Virus record (IMG/VR): IMGVR_UViG_3300026488_000013
Span: 103,051-167,050 of that record
DNA from: a virus
Strand: one strand, 5' to 3'
Length of the DNA: 64,000 bases
In this document: piece by piece, positions 10,593 through 32,035 of the stretch
Layout: every line of letters begins with the position of its first letter
Position numbering within the stretch: the stretch's first letter is position 1
Translations under genes and position numbers: made by a program
The notes under the pieces: model-generated
Seen by the model: only the letters and a program-made list of their open reading frames with translations
The model's database searches: none
Told to the model about the DNA's origin: nothing

Positions 10593-13085
10593 TTACATAA
10601 ATATCTTATCAAATGCACTTTCAACATATGTATCTTTTGTTTCAGTTAACATATTTCTAAGTGTCCGCTTTGAAGGTTCGTATAGAAATGCCAATATAGG
10701 AGATAATCTTTCAGATGCCTTGGGTAAGGGCAACTTCACAAACTTTGACAAATCTAATTCGTGGAGCTGGACATTATTATTGTGAATAAAGTATCTTAAG
10801 GTTCTATTTATATCGTCAACATCTTGCTCCGTTTTTGATTCGTTAACTTCTGTATCATTATCCAATTCTATATCTTCTTCTTGTTCTATTTCATTTTCTT
10901 CTTTCAAGAACCATAACGCACTCAATATAGTTTCAATCATTACAGATTTAATAAGTTCTATCCCCAATAAAGTATCTGTTATTTCATCATATGCAGTAAA
11001 TATATCTTTATCTATCATTTTGGATTTTATTATTTTTTCAATATTAACAATTTTTGTAACAATATCGTCGTTTACCAATTTACCATTTCCTTTTACTTTA
11101 AATTTTATTATTCCATTTTCACCTATCTTAACGTCTATTAATTCTATTCTATAATCATACCCATTCTCCTCTAGGAATTTGTTTACTTCATTTATCAACT
11201 GTTGAGGGGTATATTCTTTATTATGGATTTCGATATACCCGTCATCGGTATTAAGTTCGATTTTGTATTTTTCTAATATTTCGTTGGGTATCTTGATTAT
11301 CGCACGGCCGGATGTATGGAATGTGCGTAATATAAGTTGAGTAAACCTTTCAGTTATATATTGGATTGATAACATTCCCAGCTGTTTTGATTTTATGGAT
11401 TCGTATCCTCCGCATTTTTTACATACTTTAAATCCAGGAAGTTTGCAGGTTATAGGGCTTCTTAATAGTATTTCTTTACCAATTATACTTTCGTAGTTAT
11501 TTTTTGTTATTAAAATCTCTCTATTTAATTCTTCATCCTTGTAATATCTTCCTATCAAGGATTTGGCATGAACTTCATTTTTTACCTTTATTTTAAAATA
11601 TTTATCAGTCCCGCAATCTTCCGTATCTTCATCAAACATTATAAATGATAGATTGTATAAACCTGTCCTTTGGAGAAATCCAGAGCGTGGCGTTTGAACC
11701 ATTTTGTCAATCTCTCCTTTTCTTGCACCGTGTGCAGACATAAATAATTCTTTTTTTGTTAAACCTTTATTTAATGGATGTCTTACCGGTTCGGATTGAA
11801 CTATATTTTTTGCATCCGCAAGAAAACCTTTCGTATATATTGTCTGTTCAATTTGGTCTCTGGACGCTCTGGCCCCCGATTGATATATTTTCCAAAGTTC
11901 CGTATCTTTCTTTTCCATTTCTTTAAAAACTATTTCGGAATATTTATTTAAAAGATATAACCCAAATATTGGCTCGTTCGGAATGTTGTTTAATATCTTT
12001 TCCACTTCATCTTTGTTGGGGGTTATATAATCGTCCAACGTTAATTTTGGTGCAATTTTCGAATACGAAAATTCTGATAATACTAACATTATTTCGTGAA
12101 ACAAATCTAAATATCTCCTACCAAATTTTTCCAAATCTTTATCTTCATAAAGTTTTTCTTCCTTGTTTAAATATTCGATTATTACTTCGTTCACAATTCT
12201 TACCTTTTTCTTATTTATATCAGTTTCCTTTAGATAAAGCTTTTTATTAAACACTCTATAATTCAAGTAAACCAACCCATACGGTAATGTTATATTTTGA
12301 TTTTTTATTCTTACTGCATACTTTCTTACATCCTCTTTAAACAGAATAATTGGGTTGGGTTTAAAATCCTCAATCGAATCTATTTCAATTATTTTTTCAA
12401 TATATTTCGTTGTCGATAACTGATTTAGTGCATATAAATATTCATGGCGTAATTTGTGTAAAAAATCATCATTTCTGTGGTATCTCAAGAATGTGGTTGC
12501 ATGAATTCTCTTATTAAATATGTCTTGTTTTGCTTCAACAGTATTTATTGCATACTGTGCCATTGTGTCCTGCACAACTATATCATTTGCTACAAATGTG
12601 AAATTCTTATCCAGTGTCATGTCATATGCTGTTCCTTTTCCAGAATATCTTATTTCAATATCAGTTATAGGTATCCGTTTTACTTTATTATTTGGTAAAA
12701 CTTTGATAAAGTATAGGGATTTCTTAATTTGGAAAGGCATATTTAAAATTTCTACAGGAGATATTTTTTCAAACTCGTCCAGCTCTATATTATAAACAAT
12801 CAGCGAGTGGTCTCCAGATGCTTTAAATGGTTGAAATCTATTTCGTTTATCTTTTATTTCGTAAAGGTCTAAGTTTTCATGGACAGAGAACTCAATTATT
12901 TTTGCTCTTTCAATTTTTCCAGTTTCCATATTAAGCGATTTTGTAAACATATCTTTCATAGGTTTATATTTGATTACTTTGACTCCATCGTTTCTTACAT
13001 ATTCATCAATTTTGATAAAAAATTCTTCTAGAAATTCTTTAACACCAACCATTTTCTTCATAATTCTATCATATCCATAAATCAA
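10593..13085 (-). CDS. RNA polymerase beta'-like subunit, C-terminal half, preceded by a split-intein C-fragment
   Basis: After residue 173: TMA (residues that normally follow NADFDGD), SGARAS, HGARKGEID, TPRSGFLQR, EDCGT, LRSPITC..CKKC, TQLILRTFHTSG (trigger loop). The true start is uncertain (13085 TTG, 13061 ATG, or 13104 with an indel). Confidence 0.9.
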   Translation of the reverse strand: MIYGYDRIMKKMVGVKEFLEEFFIKIDEYVRNDGVKVIKYKPMKDMFTKSLNMETGKIERAKIIEFSVHENLDLYEIKDKRNRFQPFKASGDHSLIVYNIELDEFEKISPVEILNMPFQIKKSLYFIKVLPNNKVKRIPITDIEIRYSGKGTAYDMTLDKNFTFVANDIVVQDTMAQYAINTVEAKQDIFNKRIHATTFLRYHRNDDFLHKLRHEYLYALNQLSTTKYIEKIIEIDSIEDFKPNPIILFKEDVRKYAVRIKNQNITLPYGLVYLNYRVFNKKLYLKETDINKKKVRIVNEVIIEYLNKEEKLYEDKDLEKFGRRYLDLFHEIMLVLSEFSYSKIAPKLTLDDYITPNKDEVEKILNNIPNEPIFGLYLLNKYSEIVFKEMEKKDTELWKIYQSGARASRDQIEQTIYTKGFLADAKNIVQSEPVRHPLNKGLTKKELFMSAHGARKGEIDKMVQTPRSGFLQRTGLYNLSFIMFDEDTEDCGTDKYFKIKVKNEVHAKSLIGRYYKDEELNREILITKNNYESIIGKEILLRSPITCKLPGFKVCKKCGGYESIKSKQLGMLSIQYITERFTQLILRTFHTSGRAIIKIPNEILEKYKIELNTDDGYIEIHNKEYTPQQLINEVNKFLEENGYDYRIELIDVKIGENGIIKFKVKGNGKLVNDDIVTKIVNIEKIIKSKMIDKDIFTAYDEITDTLLGIELIKSVMIETILSALWFLKEENEIEQEEDIELDNDTEVNESKTEQDVDDINRTLRYFIHNNNVQLHELDLSKFVKLPLPKASERLSPILAFLYEPSKRTLRNMLTETKDTYVESAFDKIFM
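12567..13085 (-). other. Intein fragment lacking block A (large IntC of an atypically split intein)
   Basis: Block B KASGDHSL, block F TAYDMTLDKNFTFVAND, block G IVVQD/T; no N-terminal Cys/Ser and no N-extein. Confidence 0.8.
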
Positions 13086-19002: not shown

Positions 19003-19410
19003 ATGAGTTTGGAAGACATTGAGATAGCAAAGAAAATCTGGGAAACTAAAAAAATAAAAGAAAATAAAGTAATAGTTGATAAAAATGGAGAGAAATATGA
19101 AATTAGAGTAGTTTTGATAGATAAAAACAATGATGGTTTATGGAAATTTGCTATAGAATGGAGAAGAATAGATAAAAAACCACAGTGGATAGATGAATGG
19201 AGTTATTTCAAAATATTGGAAATAGGCCCGAACAGCTATATAGTATCAGAATCAAACATATACGATGATTGCTCAATGCCATATAAAAATGATTTAGAAA
19301 AATATTTATCAGAAGCAGATAAAAAACAACTAGAAAAATTATTAGAAGACAAAAAAGAACTGGAAGAAATGTTTGACACCGTATGGAGAGAAATAACAGC
19401 AATATCTTAA
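19003..19410 (+). CDS. Hypothetical protein
   Basis: 135-aa ORF with phage-like codon usage, upstream of nrdB. Confidence 0.7.
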   Translation: MSLEDIEIAKKIWETKKIKENKVIVDKNGEKYEIRVVLIDKNNDGLWKFAIEWRRIDKKPQWIDEWSYFKILEIGPNSYIVSESNIYDDCSMPYKNDLEKYLSEADKKQLEKLLEDKKELEEMFDTVWREITAIS

Positions 19411-19499
19411 TTTCGCTTTTTTCATTTTTTTTTTGTTCCACATGTGTAGAGTTTTCAGAAAAGGAATGTTTTAATAATTTCCTCCTGTGGAGGGCAGCA

Positions 19500-20633
19500 A
19501 TGAACAGAATTAAGAAAAGATTATTTAATCCAGTGGGCAATGATTTTGCAGATAATCAATCCCCGATATATTTTGGAACTAGTCCCTTAGTAAATGAACC
19601 TACCGGGCTTTTTACAATATTTGAACCTCGTGATAGAGATATATACGAATTTGTTACGTTACAAAAACAAAGATTTTGGCGAGCGGATGATTACCCAATA
19701 GATGCTATTAAAGAAGGGTTTACCCAATTAGACGAAAATAATAAAAAAATTTTCGAATACACTCTATCTTTCTTAAGCTTCTTGGATAGTGTTCAAGTAG
19801 CAAATATATCAGACTTAAATGTAGTATATAACATGCCCGAGTATAGGTTATGGGGAACTGTTCATCAATACTTTGAACATGAACATAGTATTGCTTATTC
19901 TAATATATTGGTTGGATTATTTAATAATAATACTGACGAAATTAAGCGAATTTTTTATCTAGCTAAAGACCATCCGACACTCAAGAAAAGGAATGAATTG
20001 ATAGCTAATAATTACCAGAAGTTGTTTGATATTTTCTGGGAAGGTATTAAGAATGTTTCGGTAGATGATTATGCACGTGCTTTAACGTATGTCTTAGCCG
20101 GCACGTATGCAATGGAAGCAATTACGTTTTATATGGGCTTTAAAATAATAGAATTTTACCAGTTCAAATATGGAATACTTCCCATGACCAACAAGATGAT
20201 TTCTGAGATAAAAGCGGACGAACTCTTCCATGTTAAGGTCATGGCAACAATAATTAATAGAGTTAAACCTTTTATACTCGAACATATCTCTAATGAGGAA
20301 TTCGACGAAATAGTTAGAAATACATTGAAAGCATACTATGAATCTGATTTAGAGTTTTATAGAGATATTTTGCAGAGAAATGAATTTGGGATAACAGATA
20401 AACAGATTTTTGATTACATAACTTTCTTGACTAATAGGCGTGCTGCCCTGATAGGTTTAAAAGACATAGGTCTCCCGAATGTAGATAACCCGTTCAAAGA
20501 AATAGACAATTTATTTGGATATTTAGAATCTCATGATAATTCTAATAGAAAAGATTCTTTCTTTGAATCATCAAGTGCTGCATACATCGCCCAGAAAATA
20601 GATGATTCAGCGTTGGACGATTTTGACTTTTGA
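19500..20633 (+). CDS. nrdB: Ribonucleotide reductase class Ia beta subunit
   Basis: FW, FLDSVQ, EHEHSIAY, MEAITFYMGF, DELFH, NRR, FFE; ATG at 19500 follows GGAGG (ORF-track start at 19383 is too early). Confidence 0.93.
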   Translation: MNRIKKRLFNPVGNDFADNQSPIYFGTSPLVNEPTGLFTIFEPRDRDIYEFVTLQKQRFWRADDYPIDAIKEGFTQLDENNKKIFEYTLSFLSFLDSVQVANISDLNVVYNMPEYRLWGTVHQYFEHEHSIAYSNILVGLFNNNTDEIKRIFYLAKDHPTLKKRNELIANNYQKLFDIFWEGIKNVSVDDYARALTYVLAGTYAMEAITFYMGFKIIEFYQFKYGILPMTNKMISEIKADELFHVKVMATIINRVKPFILEHISNEEFDEIVRNTLKAYYESDLEFYRDILQRNEFGITDKQIFDYITFLTNRRAALIGLKDIGLPNVDNPFKEIDNLFGYLESHDNSNRKDSFFESSSAAYIAQKIDDSALDDFDF

Positions 20634-20852: not shown

Positions 20853-21563
20853 TCACATTTTATACTTTAAATTTCTTATTGCATCGATTAATTCTATTAC
20901 AAAACTCAAATTTCTATAGTATGGAACCTCTAGGATTTTATCTAATTCGCCATCTTTAATATCATATCCAAATATTTTATTTATTGCTCTTTTTATTATA
21001 TATTTGGCTATATTGCTGCTTGTTATATCATCCTCATACTCGAATTCATATATTATATCTTTATAATTTTCAATTTCATTTACTAGAATATCTTTCAAAA
21101 TCTCTATAATTCTGTTATAAAATCTTTCATCTATAATTCTCTTCATCAATGATTTTATTTTGAAAATTCCCTCGGTATGAGGGGATAATAATATTTTTGT
21201 AATATTTGTAGGAATATTTCCGAATTTTCTGTTAAAATACTCTTCAATCAAATACTCGAACTCTTTTCTAAGATACTCATTTTCAACCCAATTTATGTAT
21301 TTGAGTTCCACTATAAGCTCCATTATATCTTTTCCATTTTTATCTTCTATAATTTCTTTATCAGATATGATATAAATGTTAAAGTCATTGACTATTGGTG
21401 TGTCCTTTTCTATATTTATTATTGGCTCTAAATATATAGCATATATCTTTGTATTATTATCTGTTTTATATTTTTTATCTATTTTTGTCACGATTTTGAC
21501 GGTTCTAGCCATCATAACCGATATATTTCCGTAGAAATATGAAAAAAAATTAATATAAAGCAT
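20853..21563 (-). CDS. Hypothetical protein
   Basis: 236-aa ORF; start may be at the later MMAR. Confidence 0.6.
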   Translation of the reverse strand: MLYINFFSYFYGNISVMMARTVKIVTKIDKKYKTDNNTKIYAIYLEPIINIEKDTPIVNDFNIYIISDKEIIEDKNGKDIMELIVELKYINWVENEYLRKEFEYLIEEYFNRKFGNIPTNITKILLSPHTEGIFKIKSLMKRIIDERFYNRIIEILKDILVNEIENYKDIIYEFEYEDDITSSNIAKYIIKRAINKIFGYDIKDGELDKILEVPYYRNLSFVIELIDAIRNLKYKM

Positions 21564-22710
21564 TTATTCTCTTCTCCAGGTTTTTGTTTAAATATTTCTG
21601 AACACCGGCCTGGGCGAATTTAATCATGAATTTTGAATTCATTGTTATTGGACTTCCTATATTTTTATCGTTTAGGATAAATGTAGGAACAATATTTACA
21701 CCATATGATACCGCATTAAGTTGAGGTTTTACAACCTTTCCTTGTAGTTTATCATAATATGAATATTTGAAGTTATCCCCTTTCTCATACCAATATGCGG
21801 AGGTTTTCTTTAGTTGTTTCCGCAAACTCATATAATCATCTATAAATCCAACCATTATACCTACTTGGTTGTCGTGTTTTTCAAATAGTGCCCCACTAAA
21901 TGTTAGAACATATTTTTTCAAATATTTCTCTATAAATTCATCGATAGTTATTTCCCTGATTTTAATCTTATTACTGGTCGGATTATCAACTACTATTACT
22001 CTAAACTTTTCCCATTCTTTATCACTTTTTATACCTAAATATAGTTTTAGGTATTCTTTATATTTTCTAATATTACCCTTCGCTACAATCCAAAAGTATA
22101 TCAATTTATTTGTTTCATCATCCTTATATGACAAAAGATGTGTATAGTTTTCTAGAAATGGTATTAATCTGGTTTTTAATACAATGTAATCCTCACCGTT
22201 CATTATTCCATCTAAAGTATATTCGGCAAAAACATACATGAGTTCATCCAATATTTTTAAAGTGAATTTTAGATTGTTTTCTATAATCTCTTTTTTCTTG
22301 TTTGGCTTATACCATTCTACAAACGATAAAATTAGTCGATTAAATGATTCTTTAAACGAATTTTTAAGATTTAAAATCTTAGATTTTAAGACCGTTTTCT
22401 TCTTAGGTTTATCTGTGTTGACAAATTCTTGCACATATTTAGAGAACTTCCTTAATGCATCGATAAGCTTATACGTTTGGGGAGGATATACTCTGGCCCG
22501 AAGAGTAGTGAAGTCTATATTAAACATTTTTACTGTAGAAGGATACATGGATGTGTTGTGAACAAGAATATAATAATCAGATTTTGGGTCTTTGGCAAAA
22601 AATCTTTCAGTATCTTCTACAGAAATATCATATACATAATCATCCTCAATTTCTATAATTTCTATGCTTTCAATTTCGTCAATAAACCAAACTCTTCTTC
22701 TTTCTATCAT
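21550..22710 (-). CDS. polB: Family-B DNA polymerase, part 2 (IntC + second half of motif A + fingers/motif B)
   Basis: ...YILVHN|TSMYPS; motif B QGKVVKPQLNAVSYG; IGSPIT; AGGGGG SD. Confidence 0.9.
   Translation of the reverse strand: MIERRRVWFIDEIESIEIIEIEDDYVYDISVEDTERFFAKDPKSDYYILVHNTSMYPSTVKMFNIDFTTLRARVYPPQTYKLIDALRKFSKYVQEFVNTDKPKKKTVLKSKILNLKNSFKESFNRLILSFVEWYKPNKKKEIIENNLKFTLKILDELMYVFAEYTLDGIMNGEDYIVLKTRLIPFLENYTHLLSYKDDETNKLIYFWIVAKGNIRKYKEYLKLYLGIKSDKEWEKFRVIVVDNPTSNKIKIREITIDEFIEKYLKKYVLTFSGALFEKHDNQVGIMVGFIDDYMSLRKQLKKTSAYWYEKGDNFKYSYYDKLQGKVVKPQLNAVSYGVNIVPTFILNDKNIGSPITMNSKFMIKFAQAGVQKYLNKNLEKRINALY
22555..22710 (-). other. Split intein C-fragment (52 aa)
   Basis: Block F YVYDISVEDTERFFA, block G ILVHN followed by Thr+1. 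Confidence 0.93.
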
Positions 22711-22750
22711 TTGTGCCCCCTTTCTCTTTTTTTTAAAAAATGGAAATTAT

Positions 22751-23371
22751 CTATACATTAAAGCCCGGTATTTTTATTCCGAAATCATCTATTAATATAT
22801 CTAATCCGCTCCATTCGTAGAAATCATAAACATTATGTCTTTTCGGAGGTGGCTGTTTATGAATTATATAAAGTGCTGCGTCAGTCATAAGACCTGCAGC
22901 ATTATTTGCAATATTTATTAATTCATCCTGAACCGTTGTTGATGTTAAAAATGACATTAAATTATCATATGCGATGTTACCAACCAACTTGTCGTTTTGC
23001 TCATCTACCTGGAAGCAATTATCCAAATCACAGTCAACATATTTTGTATAAAATGATATTTTTTTTATTACTGCGCAAGTCTCGGTAGGGGGTAAAAATA
23101 ATTTATCTCTAAAATACGGCATTGTTTCGAACATATTATGGACGAATTGACTGTAGTAACCAAACAGTGTAGTAAATATTCTTTGTTTAAAAACAGATGC
23201 TTCTATAAATTTATAAGAATTATAAGCAGATAAAATGTTGTTTATTAATGAGTCTAAATCCTTTTGGTATTTGGGAGCTATTTTCATCCAATAATTTCTA
23301 AGTTCGGGTATGAACTTATTTTTAAAATTTCTAAGCAAGTGAATATCTTTAATATTTATATCACAAGCCAT
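22751..23371 (-). CDS. Hypothetical protein
   Basis: 206-aa ORF, GAGG SD. Confidence 0.65.
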   Translation of the reverse strand: MACDINIKDIHLLRNFKNKFIPELRNYWMKIAPKYQKDLDSLINNILSAYNSYKFIEASVFKQRIFTTLFGYYSQFVHNMFETMPYFRDKLFLPPTETCAVIKKISFYTKYVDCDLDNCFQVDEQNDKLVGNIAYDNLMSFLTSTTVQDELINIANNAAGLMTDAALYIIHKQPPPKRHNVYDFYEWSGLDILIDDFGIKIPGFNV

Positions 23372-23483
23372 TTATAAAACCTCACGAAAAAAAATGTCGC
23401 CGGATGCTCATTATTTTAGTGATAGGGCGGTTGACTGATTTAAAATGAAAAAAATATTAAAATTAAAGTTAAGAGATAATTTA

Positions 23484-24515
23484 TTATTCTATGTAAAAAT
23501 CTATCATCATTCTTCTTATTTTATCTTCTATATCTGCCGGTAATTTATTCAAATAGTCGTGTATTCTATAATCCAACATTAATACCATTTTCTCGAGTTC
23601 TTTAGTATTATTTGTTTTAGCTATTTCTATGAGTTTGTTTATAATATCATCGCTATCTAATTCGATATATTTCTCCAATTCCTCGATATTATCTATTGTT
23701 TCTTTTTTACATTCATTTATTTGCTCATTTACATTATCCTCACATTTGGTTATTTCTTCTTTTAAATTATCCAACTGTTTTATTATCTTATCAAACGGAT
23801 ACTCGATATATTCTAAATCATGTTTCATATATTCCACTTCTTTTCTTCTTATCATCGCATTTATATATTTTTTAATCAATCTGCTTATGTTGGCGTCTAT
23901 TTTTATAATACTTTTCAATTTGAACACATATGTATTTCTATATTTCGAGATTTCTTTATCGGGTATTTCTAATTTCTTGTATACAGTATAATATTTGGTC
24001 GAATATACTCCCGATGGACCGTATACGGGGTCGTTCACCTCATATTCCAATATATGTTTGGTTTTTGTCTCTTTTGTATATCCAACATATTTATCATCAA
24101 TATGGAAGAGTATAAAATACCCTTGGTTTTTATTTCCTATTATTATTTCAAATATTGCAATGTCTTTTATATCCTTATTCTTAATTTCATTATATATATC
24201 TTTCAAAGCTTCTATAGGTAGGCAATCTATATATCTTAAATATTCATCTAAATGGATTCTCCAGTCCCATTCATATATTTGTTCTAATATTTCATTTTCA
24301 AAATCTTCTATTTCTTTTATCTCATGTTCGAAATATTTAATAATTTTTTTTATATTCTTTTTATCATTTTCGTGTTTTTCTTTTAATTGTTCTATTTCTT
24401 TCTTTATATGTTTAATTTTATCCACCAATTTATCTATATCGCCAGAAATATACAATTCTTCTATCGTATTTTTTATAACTTCTAATTCCCTAAGAATTAG
24501 TTCTTTTTCCATCAT
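23484..24515 (-). CDS. Hypothetical coiled-coil protein
   Basis: 343-aa ORF, E/K-rich helical ends. Confidence 0.65.
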   Translation of the reverse strand: MMEKELILRELEVIKNTIEELYISGDIDKLVDKIKHIKKEIEQLKEKHENDKKNIKKIIKYFEHEIKEIEDFENEILEQIYEWDWRIHLDEYLRYIDCLPIEALKDIYNEIKNKDIKDIAIFEIIIGNKNQGYFILFHIDDKYVGYTKETKTKHILEYEVNDPVYGPSGVYSTKYYTVYKKLEIPDKEISKYRNTYVFKLKSIIKIDANISRLIKKYINAMIRRKEVEYMKHDLEYIEYPFDKIIKQLDNLKEEITKCEDNVNEQINECKKETIDNIEELEKYIELDSDDIINKLIEIAKTNNTKELEKMVLMLDYRIHDYLNKLPADIEDKIRRMMIDFYIE

Positions 24516-24586
24516 AGTGCGTTAATATCTATACAAACTAAAAAAGATAAAAAAACATATACGAAAAACAAAAACACGGAAAAAAC

Positions 24587-25015
24587 TTATTTTTTCTCCA
24601 TTAACAATTCTATATTATCTATTCGCCTAAATATTATTCTAAGATTTTTATCTATCACGAAATCTCTAATTTTATATCTTCTTTTAATATCCTTTAATAC
24701 AACTTCGGGCGGGAGTTTTTTGGTATAAAGTGTGCTCTTTATTCTATATCCGCCCCACACTATGTCATTATCGTATGATTCAACTATGAATCTCCCATAT
24801 GCAAATTTTTTATTTATTTTTTCAAAATCTTTATCTGACAGTCCTAATTCTTCTTTTAACGCCTTTTCTATTTCAGGGATAATATCTTTTAGTCTATATT
24901 TCGGTATAAACACATTTGTTTTAATATATATTGTGTTTTCTTTTGGTATGTATACCCCCATTATTTCTAGTTTCTTCTTGATTAATTTTTTCTCTTTGTT
25001 CTCTTTGTTTCCCAT
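24587..25015 (-). CDS. Hypothetical protein
   Basis: 142-aa ORF, GAGGAGG SD. Confidence 0.7.
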   Translation of the reverse strand: MGNKENKEKKLIKKKLEIMGVYIPKENTIYIKTNVFIPKYRLKDIIPEIEKALKEELGLSDKDFEKINKKFAYGRFIVESYDNDIVWGGYRIKSTLYTKKLPPEVVLKDIKRRYKIRDFVIDKNLRIIFRRIDNIELLMEKK

Positions 25016-25068
25016 AAGACCTACCTCCTCTAAAAATTTTTTTTATACTAAATTATCCGTAAATTAAC

Positions 25069-26307
25069 TCATATAATTAAATTATCCATTGCCTTAGCAA
25101 TCACCCTTATATGGTTCTGTGCGTCAGGTTTTATTCTCTCGTTTATAAAATCTTCAATGAAACGACGCAACCCCGCTATTACAATATTAGTAGATTTGAA
25201 TTGTTGTAATTCATCCCTAGCGGCTTCTTTTTTAAATCCTCTTTTTAATTTATTTTCATATTTTAATATGCGGCTCCACTTATCTGTTATAAGTCCGTCA
25301 AAATATGATACAAGTGTATCTACTTTCCACTCCGGGTTTGCATAATTAATTTCATCCATCAAAATAATAACTTCTGATTTTCTAGTTTTAGTGTATCTAT
25401 CAGAACGTTGTAAGAAATTCAGTGTTTTATGTCTAACTATCTGGTGAGTAGTCACTTTATCGGTTTTTTCAATAATGAAAAACTGGTTTTGCCATTTTCT
25501 AATCTTCTCGGCCAGTGCTAATTTATATTCATCTGATGATTTAGATATTCTATAATAATTGGGTATCCTGATAAAAAATAAATTCATATATTCAAACTCA
25601 CATGAAGAGTGATTTTTGATAGTCGGACTTATCTTATAAACGATAGGATTATAAAATTTCTCTGTTATCCATTTTTTGCCCTTTAATTTTTGTATTAACT
25701 CTTTATTATATATATCTTCTAAATTATGTTGGTATCTTTCGAAATTTGTAAATGCGTCCGAATTAAAAATATCGTTTAGCACGTTAGATAAATACGTGAA
25801 CAAATCTCCGACCCAGTAGGTCGGTATATTTTTATAATATTCACAAATATTTATGTTATTGAGATTTAGAAATTCATCTTTTTTATAAGCGTTTCTGATA
25901 TATTCTGCAAACGCCCTATCAGAGATTATTATTAAATCAAAATTCTTATCTATTTCATCTACTCTTGCCGCACCGTAAGGCAGTTTCAACAATGATTTTG
26001 TTATAACATGTGAATCTGGGACAATAAAATAAGTATATGTGGTTCCTGTTATGGATGTATGGCCGTTGTATATCAAATTAACAACAAAATTAAAAATATT
26101 ATATGGTTCATTTGTATTTTTAACTTCCGCATCCAAATATAAATCTAAAATATCGCCTTTATTATAATAACAAACTCTGGCACCCAAATAGTGCCATAAT
26201 TTCTTGTTCCAAAATATATATTGAAGTATATGCTTTCTATTACCAGCAGGAAATAAAAAGTTTAATACCTTTTCAAATGCTTTTATTTCTTCTTTTGTCC
26301 AAGTCAT
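25069..26307 (-). CDS. thyX: Flavin-dependent thymidylate synthase
   Basis: ARVCY, GHTSI, HQIVRHKTLNFLQRSDRY (RHRx7SxR motif), EAAR, AQNHIR. Confidence 0.85.
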   Translation of the reverse strand: MTWTKEEIKAFEKVLNFLFPAGNRKHILQYIFWNKKLWHYLGARVCYYNKGDILDLYLDAEVKNTNEPYNIFNFVVNLIYNGHTSITGTTYTYFIVPDSHVITKSLLKLPYGAARVDEIDKNFDLIIISDRAFAEYIRNAYKKDEFLNLNNINICEYYKNIPTYWVGDLFTYLSNVLNDIFNSDAFTNFERYQHNLEDIYNKELIQKLKGKKWITEKFYNPIVYKISPTIKNHSSCEFEYMNLFFIRIPNYYRISKSSDEYKLALAEKIRKWQNQFFIIEKTDKVTTHQIVRHKTLNFLQRSDRYTKTRKSEVIILMDEINYANPEWKVDTLVSYFDGLITDKWSRILKYENKLKRGFKKEAARDELQQFKSTNIVIAGLRRFIEDFINERIKPDAQNHIRVIAKAMDNLII

Positions 26308-26327
26308 TGTTAACCCTCCTTTTTTCG

Positions 26328-27854
26328 CTAAATTAAAATCAACTTATCTCCTATTTTTAATTTGCCAGCATCCTTTAATTCTATTCTTTGTTTTTTATCG
26401 TTATAAACAAAAATTGAATGATTTTCTGTAACTTTTATTACAGCTCCAGATTTTGTTTTTATTTTCAATATTTTGTATTTTCTTTTATGTTGTATTTTCC
26501 CTTTTATCTTTTTCCAAACAACATTACCATTTTTATCTAATGTTAAAGTTTCATCTCCTTCCTCAAACTTATATTCGCCAATCGGAACCTCTCTAATTAC
26601 TCCATTTTCTTTTTTAATCAATATTAATTGGTCATAAGTTAATGATTGGTCAAAATCCATTATTAGTCCTGTTATATATCTGGGTTTGGTTTTTTTAACA
26701 TATGCTCCGAATATTTTTGTTGAAAAATATGTCTCTTTAAATACATCCATTTGCGATGGATATGGGAATTTTTCATATGGCAAAAATGACCTGATTTCGG
26801 AATTATCTCTTTCGGTTAAGATATTACGCATAATGTCTTCGCCATATTTTGTTGCCCCACGGTATGCCATTTTAAACAGTGATTTGGACATTCGTCGTAA
26901 AGAATTATAAGTGTTTATAATGTCCAACTTTTTATCCAGGGCTTTAACCAATAAAGTATCTACAATGTTATAAAAAATATAATCTTCTATATGTTCTTTA
27001 TATGCCAAATCGAAATCTTTCCCTTGTGATGTTTTTAATTCAACCTTTTTAATGCCGAGCTCTTGTTTAGAAATATAGTCCAATTCATATGTTTCTTGAG
27101 TATCACCAAAACCTAACCCTTCGCCGGGCTTATACATGTATAAAATATCAACAAACATCAAATCTGGTGCTTGCAATCCATAGGCTTTCGAATATTGCAC
27201 TGTTTTAAATTTGGATATTACTTCGCCCGGGTTGTCTACTCCTAGATTAATAAGTCTGTTATAAATATATGGGAAGTCAAAATCATCCGAATAAAACCCG
27301 GCTATCGTCCAGACATTTTGCTTTTGAATTAAGTCGAATACATCTTTTATCATTTGCTTCTCTGCATCTATACACGGTTCGCCGCAGGTCTTAGCTTGCA
27401 GATTTTTATTATTCTTCGGAGTATAAATCTTTAATATTACTTTTATATCCTCTTCCGTCTCGAAAATTTCTTTAAGTTTTGAATAATGAGTATTTATAGA
27501 TTTTTCCAAACACTCTCTTAATTCATTCGGATTTTCGATAAAATATTTGTGTTGTTTATATTTGGGGTTTAACAAACAAAAAGCATAAACTTCATTTTTA
27601 TGAGAAAATGCCAATGAAATCAATACTATTGGATATTCCGCCTTGGAAGGTTCGGGAAACACTCCAACAAATCTAGTAAATACCTCTATGTCTATGTATG
27701 CTTTCCTAAAAAATTGTGGGGCATCATAATTATCTTTTTCTTTTCTCTTTTGATACCACTCCAAAGCACGCTGTCTGTCGGGCGAGTATTCTAATGAATA
27801 AAATTGCCATGGTTTTAATTTTTTCAAATTAGCTGCCATGCTCAAGACCCCCAT
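26328..27854 (-). CDS. polB: Family-B DNA polymerase, part 1 (3'-5' exonuclease + first half of motif A + IntN)
   Basis: ExoI IDIEV, ExoII GFYSDDFDFPY, ExoIII YNIVD, GAYVK, MDFDQ|SLTYD...; likely start at the second Met (MAANL, 27839). Confidence 0.9.
   Translation of the reverse strand: MGVLSMAANLKKLKPWQFYSLEYSPDRQRALEWYQKRKEKDNYDAPQFFRKAYIDIEVFTRFVGVFPEPSKAEYPIVLISLAFSHKNEVYAFCLLNPKYKQHKYFIENPNELRECLEKSINTHYSKLKEIFETEEDIKVILKIYTPKNNKNLQAKTCGEPCIDAEKQMIKDVFDLIQKQNVWTIAGFYSDDFDFPYIYNRLINLGVDNPGEVISKFKTVQYSKAYGLQAPDLMFVDILYMYKPGEGLGFGDTQETYELDYISKQELGIKKVELKTSQGKDFDLAYKEHIEDYIFYNIVDTLLVKALDKKLDIINTYNSLRRMSKSLFKMAYRGATKYGEDIMRNILTERDNSEIRSFLPYEKFPYPSQMDVFKETYFSTKIFGAYVKKTKPRYITGLIMDFDQSLTYDQLILIKKENGVIREVPIGEYKFEEGDETLTLDKNGNVVWKKIKGKIQHKRKYKILKIKTKSGAVIKVTENHSIFVYNDKKQRIELKDAGKLKIGDKLILI
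26331..26645 (-). other. Split intein N-fragment (105 aa, Ser1)
   Basis: Block A SLTYDQLILI, block B IKVTENHSIF, ends AGKLKIGDKLILI-stop. Confidence 0.93.
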
Positions 27855-27920
27855 ACTTAGGTGTTAACAAAAAAATAAATTCAAAACAAAGGACGTATAC
27901 AAAGTATTTTTATTTTTTTC

Positions 27921-28613
27921 TTAGAAATCGAAATCATCGTCTTCCATTTCTGAGCTATCAGAAATATCATCTATAACATTTTCTATTTGTTCTACATTTT
28001 TATTTGGTTGCTTGGATTTGTTATTACCCATTCTTAAATTTCCATTTTTATTTTCATCCGACACAAATTCATATTTATATTTTTGTAAATAATCTGTAAT
28101 TATAAATTCAAACACGCTTTTTAAATATGAAAATGCAACTAGTGGTATAGCAATCGAATATGTTTCGGGTGGATTTTTAGTTTTATCTATTACTGTTATA
28201 GTAAGTCCATTTTGGGTTAATATAAGATTATACGGCCTATTTGGACGATAAATTGATATAGAAATAGATTTACCATGCTCATTTTCTCTTTCTTGTATAG
28301 ATTCAGGTTTTACTATTTGTTTTGCTAAATATTTAAATCTCTTCGCAAATTTGTCAAAAGATATTATTCTTGGATATTCCTCTAAAATCCATTTTATAAA
28401 ACTTACTTCCAATGTGGATAATTTTATAGTAACCTTATTTTCAATTATTTGATTATTGTTTTCTACTTGTCTGAATATTGGAACTTTCCTATTATCTTCA
28501 ACTTGTTTATGAGACACAGGTTTATATATTGTGAGATATATTCCTTGGCTCGATACGGATACATCTATGCGTGCCCGCTGTGTTACAAACAATTGCTTAA
28601 CATTTACAGCCAT
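27921..28613 (-). CDS. Putative single-stranded DNA-binding protein
   Basis: Lies between pol genes; acidic tail EMEDDDFDF; AGGAGG SD before MAVNVK at 28613. Confidence 0.45.
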   Translation of the reverse strand: MAVNVKQLFVTQRARIDVSVSSQGIYLTIYKPVSHKQVEDNRKVPIFRQVENNNQIIENKVTIKLSTLEVSFIKWILEEYPRIISFDKFAKRFKYLAKQIVKPESIQERENEHGKSISISIYRPNRPYNLILTQNGLTITVIDKTKNPPETYSIAIPLVAFSYLKSVFEFIITDYLQKYKYEFVSDENKNGNLRMGNNKSKQPNKNVEQIENVIDDISDSSEMEDDDFDF

Positions 28614-28702
28614 AAAAATCGACCTCCTTTTTTTTTGTTCTATACGATTAATATCCATACAACTTATCAAAAGAAAAAACAAGAAAACAGAAATAACAAA
28701 AA

Positions 28703-29512: not shown

Positions 29513-32035
29513 TTATGGAATTAAAAAATTAAAAAAATAACCAGAATTAGAATGTTCCGTTTTAATAGCCGAAATAATTTTGTCAAAATTTTTTATTTTT
29601 TCATCTAATACCTTTTCTCTTTGTGTCTGAAAATCTATCTCTATACCAACTTCTTTCAATTTGTCCAATAGGAATTTGGGTTTTATTCCCGGCGGGACAA
29701 AAATAACATTTATTTTTTCCTTTATCCACTGTAAAGGATTTTTCATTGTAAATATCTCCTTTAATTGATAACCCGACAACTCGGTTTTTTTCTTGGTTTT
29801 CAATATTTCGTCTATTCTTTTTTTCAACTTTAATGGATTAGTTATTTTAATAGAAAGTCTGTATGATTTTTTACCGGGGCGCAATTCATCCTTAAAAATT
29901 GTATTCCAAAATTTGGCTGCTAAAACATACGCAGGTTCCTTTTTATAATTTGCCTTAGACCATGAGCTGGGTATTCCGATATATTTTAAGTTTAATTCTC
30001 TAACACTCTCGTTATATCTATTTACCCAATACATTTTCCTTTCAATATATACTGCAGGCAGTTTTTCGATTTCTCTTCTATAATCTATAAATGTTTGAAT
30101 AATATCCATTTGTAGTTCCTTAGTAAATGGGGCCGCATCGGAGCGAACAACCTCAAATCCGGTAATTTTAACTTTGGGTGGGTCATATAAAACTTTATCA
30201 TCCATTAACATATTCACAAAATATCTTTTTTTAGCATCAATAAATGCTATCGCATCCATAACAATTTCTGTTTTGAAATCTAATGTGTTCCATTCCGGAG
30301 ACACATTACAATAATTCAAAACTTCCCCTTGCCATCTTTGCTTTAGATAATCGTTGATTTCTATAGCCAACGGTTTTATAAAATCTTCATATACCTTTTT
30401 AACTATTTCTGGTTTTGATAAATCCCAACCTCTTTCTAATATCCTAGTGTAATTATCAATAAACACAAATAATGAATCAGTGTCTGAATACAGAATATTC
30501 GGAATATTGTTATCTTTCTCAACATCCATAAAGAATGTCGGTGTTGTTATTATATTTTCTTCATCATCATTGATATCAAATACTGCGGTTTCACCCGTCG
30601 CAAATGGTCTATATCCAGAGTATTCTTCAATTTTATTTTCCAATTTGGTCTTAATCTGTAATTTATTAAACTCATACTCCAATTCTTCTAAAACATAATG
30701 TTTCCTTTTATACATTTCAGTATGCGATTCTATTATGTCTTTAAATTCGTCTAGCTTTGAACGCTGTAAATCTTTATAAAATTTGTAATCATATATTATT
30801 TCCGAATTTAGATTCTCACGGTTTTCAATAAAAGAAATTTCTTTTATATCGTTGGTTCTATCCGTAAAATACACTGTATGGCTAAAAGGGATTTTCCAAT
30901 AATAGATTTCATCCGTATCTTTTTTAGTAGTTATAAACAGATATTCGTTTGTTTCCTGAAGAATATTAATATCTAACAACAAGTATTCATCTGGTATTTC
31001 ATCGGGAGAACTTACCTTAAATACATTAATATCTTCCTGCTCAAAATTATTGTTTGTTTTCCCTGGCCTTGATGCAGATTTAATATGTTTTATTTCTTCT
31101 TGTAAAAATGAGAAGAATTTTTCATATTCAGGCGGAGTATCTATATTTTCACGTATATATTTTGATGGGTGAGTTAAATAATACACTTTTATATTTTTTT
31201 CATTAATTAATTGCTGGAGTTGCTCCGAGGATTCTATTAAATTCCTATTTTCACCTTTCCCTAAAACAACAATTATATCTGGGTCAAACTGATTTATTTC
31301 TTCTATCAGATTATTGACACAGAAGTTCTTAAAAATATCGATTAACGGAACTTCTGAGACATTTTTCAATGTTTCTTGGTTAGAAGTTGAACATTTTATG
31401 GAGTTGGTAAAAATATATCTACAATTCAATTGTTCGGTATATTTTCTTAACAATTGACCTGCTTTTCCAACAAAAGGCTCGCCTCTCTTTGCTTCTTCTG
31501 TCCCCGGATTTATCCCAACAAAAAGTATAGTAGGTTTGTCGATATTACTATTAAAAATTTTATAAGAAACTTTCCTTAAATCCTTATTTAAAAGTGGACA
31601 GTTCAAACAATATTTAGAATAAATATTTTCATATTTTTTATACTTATTCCTATAGTACAGAACAAAACTATCCTCTATATTTTTGTTATTGTCAATTTCT
31701 GATAAAACTGGATGTGAATAATTGTTGATTGGATTCTTAGTATAAGGTAGATTCTTTAATTCGTCTAGGTTAAATTCGCCGGGATTATTGAAGTATAAAG
31801 GGATAATTTCATTTAAAAAATAAACGATTAAATCCTGAAGTTTATATTTATTGTGAGCACTTTTATTTAGGTCTAACAATTTAATAAAAATATTATTAAG
31901 TCGAGGGGAATTAGAAAATATTCTAAACAGTTGCTTCAATACGAAACTATAATTATCTCTTATTATATCGATTTCGTCGTTATTTAGCTTTTCTCCATTA
32001 AAAGGTTTTACAATCAGGTCTAACAACTGTCGCAT
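29513..32035 (-). CDS. polB: Uracil-DNA glycosylase (family-4-like) fused to family-B DNA polymerase part 3 (motif C + thumb)
   Basis: UDG: CLNCPL, FVGINPGTEE..GEPFVGKAGQLL, TNSIKC, FC, THPS; Pol: LYSDTDSLFV, DFKTE, AKKRY, KITGFEVVRSD. Confidence 0.88.
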   Translation of the reverse strand: MRQLLDLIVKPFNGEKLNNDEIDIIRDNYSFVLKQLFRIFSNSPRLNNIFIKLLDLNKSAHNKYKLQDLIVYFLNEIIPLYFNNPGEFNLDELKNLPYTKNPINNYSHPVLSEIDNNKNIEDSFVLYYRNKYKKYENIYSKYCLNCPLLNKDLRKVSYKIFNSNIDKPTILFVGINPGTEEAKRGEPFVGKAGQLLRKYTEQLNCRYIFTNSIKCSTSNQETLKNVSEVPLIDIFKNFCVNNLIEEINQFDPDIIVVLGKGENRNLIESSEQLQQLINEKNIKVYYLTHPSKYIRENIDTPPEYEKFFSFLQEEIKHIKSASRPGKTNNNFEQEDINVFKVSSPDEIPDEYLLLDINILQETNEYLFITTKKDTDEIYYWKIPFSHTVYFTDRTNDIKEISFIENRENLNSEIIYDYKFYKDLQRSKLDEFKDIIESHTEMYKRKHYVLEELEYEFNKLQIKTKLENKIEEYSGYRPFATGETAVFDINDDEENIITTPTFFMDVEKDNNIPNILYSDTDSLFVFIDNYTRILERGWDLSKPEIVKKVYEDFIKPLAIEINDYLKQRWQGEVLNYCNVSPEWNTLDFKTEIVMDAIAFIDAKKRYFVNMLMDDKVLYDPPKVKITGFEVVRSDAAPFTKELQMDIIQTFIDYRREIEKLPAVYIERKMYWVNRYNESVRELNLKYIGIPSSWSKANYKKEPAYVLAAKFWNTIFKDELRPGKKSYRLSIKITNPLKLKKRIDEILKTKKKTELSGYQLKEIFTMKNPLQWIKEKINVIFVPPGIKPKFLLDKLKEVGIEIDFQTQREKVLDEKIKNFDKIISAIKTEHSNSGYFFNFLIP

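Follow-up and report, generated by a model that had tools for sequence, protein, structure and literature searches.

The window analysed here is the terminal 64 kb of an IMG/VR virus contig of 167 kb (IMGVR_UViG_3300026488_000013), which was recovered from a hydrothermal vent metagenome and is estimated to be 60% complete. On its minus strand lie two gene fragments for a DNA polymerase of family B (PolB), each fused to one half of an intein. The first fragment (26328..27854) encodes a product of 508 amino acids (aa). Its 403-aa N-extein (26646..27854), assigned by PF03104, phrog_262 and alignment with RB69 gp43, contains the PolB N-terminal domain, the 3'-5' exonuclease domain and the palm as far as motif A's catalytic Asp, ending in ...DFDQ. 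Residues 404-508 constitute the 105-aa N-terminal intein half (IntN; 26331..26645), which starts with SLTYD and ends with KLILI before the stop codon (26328-26330); it was recognised by an intein hidden Markov model (HMM) and aligns with the contiguous (cis) inteins of relatives P0004/5/6/15. The second fragment (21550..22710) encodes 386 aa and is preceded by a good ribosome-binding site (RBS). Its residues 1-52, from MIERRR to ILVHN, are the C-terminal intein half (IntC; 22555..22710), again recognised by the intein HMM, and TSMYPS then opens a 334-aa C-extein (21550..22554 with the stop codon). Assigned by phrog_262 and homologue alignments, the C-extein completes motif A, contains the fingers and motif B, and stops about 40 aa past the latter. 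The IntN stop and the IntC start are separated by 3617 bp containing four minus-strand genes. Both reading frames, with their ends, had been proposed in a first-pass annotation of the sequence and recur exactly in the list of open reading frames (ORFs); its hand counts of size, charge (105 aa, +10; 52 aa, -9) and cysteine content were reproduced by computation.

An independent Logan assembly of the vent run contains 22830-28500 within one 21-kb contig and 21000-22853 within another. Because this assembly carries both the stop of IntN and the start of IntC, neither is an artefact of a single assembler. The split-intein feature is real.

All residues required for class-1 splicing are present in the two halves. 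Ser1 of IntN (26643-26645) stands directly behind DFDQ and is common to all cis and split relatives; indeed, every intein that we found at the motif-A site begins with Ser. The histidine of the NX motif, His53 (26487-26489), aligns with the corresponding residues of PI-PkoII (..IRH..) and CP21 (..MKH..). Block B reads T73-E-N-H76, with Thr73 at 26427-26429 and His76 at 26418-26420, and is conserved in the N-side alignment of relatives. In IntC, the block F Asp28 (VYD..V; 22627-22629) and the terminal His51-Asn52 (22555-22560), followed by Thr+1 (22552-22554), are invariant in the C-side alignment.

Scoring of both fragments with intein HMMs, a check suggested at first pass, returned PF14890 matches to IntN (E 2.8e-8; 34.2 bits in the whole-protein scan and 40 bits, above the cut-off, in a six-frame scan) and to IntC (profile positions 120-150, E 1e-4 to 5e-3), along with a Hint match to PF01079 (E 3.3e-5). 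In alignments, the break between IntN and IntC falls where mini-inteins have their linker and where the maxi-inteins P0028 and P0045 have their LAGLIDADG insert. Judged from this alignment, the pair is split at the canonical homing-endonuclease insertion point.

The two halves are oppositely charged. IntN has 24 Lys/Arg versus 14 Asp/Glu, and its net charge of +10 resides entirely within the C-terminal 53 aa (residues 53-105). IntC has 6 Lys/Arg versus 15 Asp/Glu, giving a net charge of -9, with -6 located in the first 25 aa. When stretches of equal length were drawn from the contig's own proteome, +10 was reached by 1.0% of those of 53 aa and -9 by 1.7% of those of 52 aa; the charge pattern is not a product of chance. 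The same cannot be said of cysteine. Composition counts bear out the earlier statement that IntN and IntC contain none, but not the emphasis placed on it: since Cys makes up only 0.6% of the contig proteome, about 0.9 Cys would be expected per 157 aa, the probability of finding none is roughly 0.4, and its absence is unremarkable.

The host polymerase and relatives at the motif-A site

The nearest solved relative of the host polymerase is RB69/T4 gp43. An intein-free homologue, P0003, reads DFDQTSMYPS and aligns with RB69 FDLTSLYPS, the motif corresponding to RB69 gp43 D411-S418. This alignment places the insertion between the equivalents of RB69 L412 and T413, one residue past the catalytic Asp411, and Thr+1 is the native Thr of a T4-type motif A. 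Excision of the intein was expected at first pass to leave DFDQTSMYPS, which is exactly what P0003 has; P0007 reads DLDQTSMYPS, and P0020 and P0021 also conform to D-x-D-Q-TSMYPS. The tryptic junction peptide expected after splicing is YITGLIMDFDQTSMYPSTVK.

Splicing would thus restore motif A, but not the whole enzyme. Matches to phrog_262 fall into three pieces, positions 105-395 in the N fragment, 405-568 in the C fragment and 567-835 in residues 507-819 of an 840-aa protein (29513..32035, minus strand) encoded upstream of the N fragment. This third polymerase chain bears no intein; it consists of a family-4-like uracil-DNA glycosylase (UDG) domain (PF03167; residues 167-308) fused to motif C (YSDTDS) and the thumb (residues ~500-840). 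The predicted spliced chain of 737 aa lacks motif C and the thumb and, because it ends before motif C, the active enzyme would have to be a two-chain assembly after splicing. The permuted gene order recurs in the relatives. In all of them, with or without an intein, the C part ends about 40 aa past motif B and the motif C part lies directly upstream of the N part.

Polymerase genes are broken in other ways as well. One relative (L008:6976-9995) encodes a UDG protein of 505 aa and a motif C part of 501 aa in two separate genes that overlap, and the motif C gene bears a cis intein of its own within motif C (YGD/S...HN/TDS, slashes marking the junctions). Environmental PolB genes P0053, P0074, P0076, P0098, P0109, P0119 and P0156 start about 40 aa before motif A and contain no intein; from their sequences, these seven are classed as non-spliced polymerase fractures near the same region.

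Relatives of the intein were collected by word-based searches and an exhaustive profile search of environmental sequences. The motif-A site is free of an intein in P0003, P0007, P0020, P0021 and many more polymerases. Contiguous mini-inteins of 148-178 aa occupy it in about 13 clusters (P0004/5, P0006, P0015, P0019, P0024, P0027, P0029, P0031, P0033, P0035, P0043, P0097 and locus L011), and P0028 and P0045 carry maxi-inteins (364 and 366 aa) with two LAGLIDADG motifs each. Genes that begin with an IntC form 4-5 clusters: P0012-14, where the window gene groups with P0013 and P0014; P0042, which has Ser+1; P0100; P0106; and perhaps P0080. Since maxi-, mini- and split forms share one site, the origin of the split intein and the sharpening of its charge segregation should be directly reconstructable.

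Among the other split members, the N fragment P0002 (contig L006) is 72% identical and ends in a 116-aa IntN with a net charge of +14, and the IntC of P0014 (contig L051) has a net charge of -12. These two contigs come from the same ENA sample with coverages of 4.8 and 5.3, and their fragments probably represent a second natural split pair. P0013 (contig L007) originates from another vent metagenome. The same stop after IntN or start before IntC is seen in L006, L007 and L051.

Relative to P0004 (L008:10001-12430), the window pair is 63-70% identical in the intein parts and 35-40% in the exteins. Conservation is thus higher in the intein than in its host gene, which suggests that the intein spread horizontally among divergent vent-phage polymerases, although most copies are without an endonuclease. 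The intein of a cis relative matched solved archaeal inteins with Ser1, namely PI-PkoII (8.7e-11), Pho CDC21-1 and Pho RadA, as well as 9HTH, the Aes123 PolB1 intein (1.3e-6).

Several searches were less productive. Single-sequence scans of viral contigs with either fragment gave no match, and a word-based search limited to the IntN region gave no additional N fragments. A metagenome scan with the C-side alignment returned mostly unrelated inteins through their block F words. Searches of GenBank phages by tblastn with IntN, with IntC plus its flank and with the intein of the cis relative yielded nothing at E < 0.01 except one weak fecal-phage match.

A separate observation concerns P0100 (L049) and P0106 (L050): with net charges of +7 and +2, their IntC sequences show that members of the motif-A allele do not all have the same charge polarity.

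Probable trans-splicing and its alternatives

The arrangement is best explained, with a probability that we consider high, by a naturally split class-1 oxyester (Ser1/Thr+1) intein residing in PolB motif A and divided at the canonical position. Both precursors, the 403-aa extein with the 105-aa IntN and the 52-aa IntC with the 334-aa extein, would be made from the same strand, their genes lying in one co-directional block of replication and nucleotide-metabolism genes. Promoter-like sites at the locus showed no excess over the shuffled expectation and no intergenic terminator was found between the halves; co-transcription is suggested only by the gene order. The basic C-terminal lobe of IntN would then capture IntC by its acidic N-terminal part, whereupon the two would collapse into a HINT fold. 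An N-O acyl shift at Ser1, aided by block B Thr73/His76 and NX His53, would be followed by transfer of the N-extein to Thr+1 and by cyclisation of Asn52 with the help of His51. A final O-N shift would leave a normal peptide bond in DFDQ-TSMYPS. The resulting 737-aa product, with exonuclease, motif A, fingers and motif B, would pair non-covalently with the UDG-fused chain that supplies motif C and the thumb.

Charge segregation agrees with the capture step. Net charges in the split forms are +10 to +14 for IntN and -9 to -12 for IntC, whereas cis relatives cut at the same point give +9/-5, +4/-5, -1/-5 and -11/0. The sharper segregation in the split forms is what the capture-and-collapse model predicts (PMC11923092).

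We also predicted the complex of IntN and IntC, each with 10 flanking residues, alongside three controls. The pair scored 0.82 and the best of the 3 controls 0.00; of 80 solved complexes 58 attained that mark, as did 2 of 110 mismatched pairs. Contact agreement between runs was at least 90%, partner pLDDT (predicted local distance difference test) was at least 72, and the tightest predicted contacts joined IntN residues 60-64 with IntC residues 13-18, which are the charged strands. Such a pass indicates likeness rather than binding and, because solved split inteins exist, may reflect memory. An AlphaFold2 single-sequence model of the cis relative's intein was unusable (pLDDT 34.5).

Constraint on the intein halves is similar to that on the polymerase exteins. 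In comparisons with the split relatives, the proportion of nonsynonymous differences (pN) was 0.19-0.24 for the former and 0.17-0.29 for the latter, and that of synonymous differences (pS) was saturated at 0.58-0.92.

Some observations speak against an active intein. Whole-protein PF14890 scores of the single halves, 34.2 and 17.1 bits, lie below the Pfam cut-off of 35.8, as is to be expected when each query is only half an intein. The NX histidine has been described as a signature specific to Ser1 oxyester inteins, with an invariant Lys/Arg before it (Pasch et al., PMC10189870), whereas the residue before His53 is Gln52; the relatives have Lys (P0002, P0004, P0006), Thr (P0005) or Glu (P0015) at this position. 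Finally, as the contig is estimated to be only 60% complete, a contiguous polB may lie in the part that was not seen.

Among other explanations, the one that survives best, though we give it only a small chance, is that the halves associate without splicing and serve as a tight dimerisation module within a three-chain non-covalent polymerase. One break without splicing, between motifs B and C, is already tolerated in this phage clade, and the non-spliced split gp43 of phage 25 is active (PMC2988022). Against this reading, the window pair and the other split members retain every residue that the chemistry needs: Ser1, the block B TxxH, the NX histidine, the Asp of block F, the His-Asn end and Thr+1. 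Moreover, the break falls inside the motif A strand, one residue past the metal-binding Asp, where an insert of 157 aa would be hard to accommodate.

It is quite improbable that the fragments are decaying remnants in a phage replicated by the host or by a polymerase encoded in the unseen 40% of its genome. The estimated completeness leaves room for such a gene, and the first-pass annotation had named an intact contiguous polB elsewhere, together with decay, as evidence that would count against splicing. We found no other PolB in the 167-kb contig, and larger related contigs carry a single PolB set. Nor do the fragments look decayed: each is an open frame of full length, the exonuclease motifs and motifs A and B are intact, pN lies far under pS in keeping with purifying selection on the halves, and the same split layout appears in other samples.

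Least credible of all is an error of assembly or gene calling in which a contiguous mini-intein was interrupted by a chimeric 3.6-kb block, for although metagenome assemblies are at issue and the Logan contigs break at 22818-22859, that break coincides with a high-depth CRISPR spacer unitig rather than with a polB-half junction, one Logan contig of 21 kb runs through the IntN stop and all of the four intervening genes while another spans the IntC start with its RBS, and L006, L007 and L051 repeat the stop or start, L007 even sharing the 206-aa upstream gene.

Every in-silico test available backs the reading of the two halves as a functional pair that splices in trans and restores motif A, and we regard the element as a genuine natural split intein that is very probably active.

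Intervening genes and the likely host

All four genes between the halves are on the minus strand. The one nearest to IntN (25069..26307) has a strong RBS and an ATG 21 nt after the IntN stop and encodes a 412-aa ThyX-like protein (PF02511, E 3.4e-17). Its divergent ThyX domain spans residues 277-410, leaving the N-terminal 270 aa unexplained, and it has RHK in place of the usual RHR motif. A 142-aa hypothetical protein (24587..25015) and a coiled-coil-rich hypothetical protein of 343 aa (23484..24515), within whose gene lies a protospacer at 23567-23600, gave no Pfam or PHROG match. The fourth gene (22751..23371), with a protospacer at 22818-22859, encodes a 206-aa hypothetical protein without a family match. 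Its homologue (49% identity) is found directly upstream of the IntC gene in L007, a contig which also has two ThyX-like paralogues (3-242, 780-1928) upstream of that gene. An atlas search with the 206-aa protein gave no usable match, and an ORF upstream of IntC in L051, considered as another homologue, was rejected on comparison.

Between the halves of fractured phage genes of this kind, a free-standing homing endonuclease gene is reportedly typical. Searches of Pfam and PHROGs recognised none among the four intervening proteins, although a very divergent nuclease could escape them, and these proteins have no significant similarity to the LAGLIDADG part of the related maxi-inteins, so that no endonuclease remnants were detected. 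The initial description of the spacer, about 3.6 kb with thyX and three hypothetical genes but without a free-standing endonuclease, is in accord with these results. In L006, the genes behind IntN encode a DUF2283 protein, an AAA-like protein and a zinc ribbon, and no endonuclease was recognised there either. Because these genes differ from the set with the ThyX-like and 206-aa proteins, the cargo between the halves is variable.

The two protospacers point to a host. In both vent runs, short and very deep contigs contain 22818-22859 and 23567-23600 flanked by one 35-nt CRISPR (clustered regularly interspaced short palindromic repeats) repeat. Among 185,579 GTDB species genomes, this repeat occurs only in an Aquificota metagenome-assembled genome (MAG), JAADES01, in arrays of 11-34 copies; the 58 spacers of the MAG itself do not match the phage contig. 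As the repeat flanking the spacers is found only in this MAG, the host is likely a thermophilic Aquificota bacterium. The Zeldovich relation links the proteomic fraction of the residues IVYWREL to growth temperature, and the observed fraction of 0.438 translates to a crude 75 C, a value inflated by AT bias.

Two further features of the window lie outside the polymerase locus. An RNA polymerase beta'-like ORF (10593-13085, minus strand) begins with about 165 aa of intein sequence without block A (PF14890 at 19-153, E 2.4e-7); the intein part ends in ...VVQD and is followed by TMAQY. It may represent another split intein of this phage, one divided atypically, in which case the beta' and PolB inteins would make up a natural orthogonal pair. 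In addition, a 253-aa protein resembling single-stranded DNA-binding protein (27921-28682, minus strand) and the small subunit of ribonucleotide reductase (19383-20633, plus strand) share the acidic tail ...DDFDF.

Comparison with known split inteins

The closest known systems are the PolB1 inteins of Aes123 and CP21, two natural split inteins of T4-like phages that are counted as cysteine-less and gave rise to CL and CLm (PDB 9HTH). Like the window pair, they interrupt a T4-type PolB, are split canonically so that IntN is 105-120 aa long and IntC is short (120 + 39 aa in the natural cysteine-less Aes123 PolB1; PMC11923092), and combine Ser1, the NX His, a block B of TE(D/N)H and the end ...ILVHN with an acidic IntC (+3/-8 in CP21). 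The core of the window intein is 39-42% identical to that of CP21. The insertion sites are different, however. Aes123 and CP21 PolB1 lie in motif C (DTD/S) with Ser+1, as we confirmed by reading CP21 directly (..YTD/S ... HN/SCYV), whereas the window pair lies in motif A with Thr+1; from the core identity and this difference, the inteins are homologous but belong to different alleles. CP21 also has a single gene, of 333 aa, between its halves, in contrast to the four of the window pair, none of them a recognisable endonuclease.

Other published PolB split inteins include LCGC14 PolB2 and GOM-OPS-1 PolB2, reported together with CP21 PolB1 (PMC12707363), and the atypically split PolB16 OarG, which consists of 15 + 168 aa at DTD/S (PMC10189870). 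LCGC14, GOM-OPS-1 and PolB16 share with the window pair a metagenomic origin, Ser1, cysteine independence, a phage-type PolB and the NX motif. In contrast, all three have Ser+1 and come from sheep gut and marine sediment rather than from a vent thermophile phage. CP21, LCGC14 and GOM-OPS-1 contain one non-catalytic Cys each and PolB16 contains two, whereas the window intein has none (PMC12707363, PMC10189870). Given this established and growing group of T4-like PolB inteins (Aes123, CP21, LCGC14, GOM-OPS-1, PolB16), the first-pass characterisation of cysteine-less split inteins as rare was overstated.

The Neq Pol intein is likewise thermophilic, cysteine-less and naturally split, and its family B polymerase is encoded by two genes far apart. 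It differs in its archaeal host polymerase and in its site, which is position III (YGD/TDS) rather than motif A (PMC549080), and its precursors have been described as poorly behaved (PMC10189870). The canonical split inteins gp41-1, NrdJ-1 and IMPDH-1, known from fractured genes in marine phage metagenomes, are also phage-borne and have a mainly negative IntC, the opposite of Npu DnaE (bioRxiv 10.1101/546465), but they depend on Cys1. A basic IntN with an acidic IntC is thus indeed the reverse of the DnaE polarity, as first proposed, yet it is not unusual, being shared by gp41-1 and CP21 PolB1 and usual among phage split inteins. T4-type PolB made as separate chains is known from the Aeromonas phages 25 and 44RR (gp43A/gp43B; Petrov et al. 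2010, via PMC2988022). The phage 25 proteins co-purify and polymerise without splicing, and provide the model for how the UDG-fused motif C/thumb chain would join the spliced product. These phages have no intein and a collinear gene order, unlike the window, where the C-terminal part lies upstream and is fused to UDG.

Our literature search, which included the combination of 'split intein' with the SLYPS motif and covered the literature incompletely, found no published split intein at the PolB motif-A site. An archaeal cis intein allele, 'pol-a', presumably occupies motif A. One reading, against which we lean slightly on balance, would make the window pair the first split intein to be described from a separate motif-A allele of PolB (Ser1/Thr+1), in a thermophilic Aquificota phage. 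In that case it would offer a fully cysteine-free, canonically divided intein with natural thermostability, one that is likely orthogonal to the tools Aes/CL/CLm, LCGC14 and PolB16.

With cysteine-less split inteins, proteins can be ligated in the absence of reductant and in combination with thiol chemistry. Only four that work on purified proteins were counted in a 2026 paper, which called for further natural candidates (PMC13014065). With no Cys, a canonical split, Thr+1, a different native junction and a probable thermophilic origin, the window pair is a reasonable candidate for a robust orthogonal tool. Its biological novelty is modest, and the view of how split inteins work is unchanged. 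Nevertheless, the phage PolB motif-A site now stands as a second intein hot spot, with maxi, mini and split stages all kept in related vent phages. By comparison with the systems above, the pair is placed as a new member, with its motif-A site and Thr+1, of the already known phage PolB split inteins that do not depend on cysteine.

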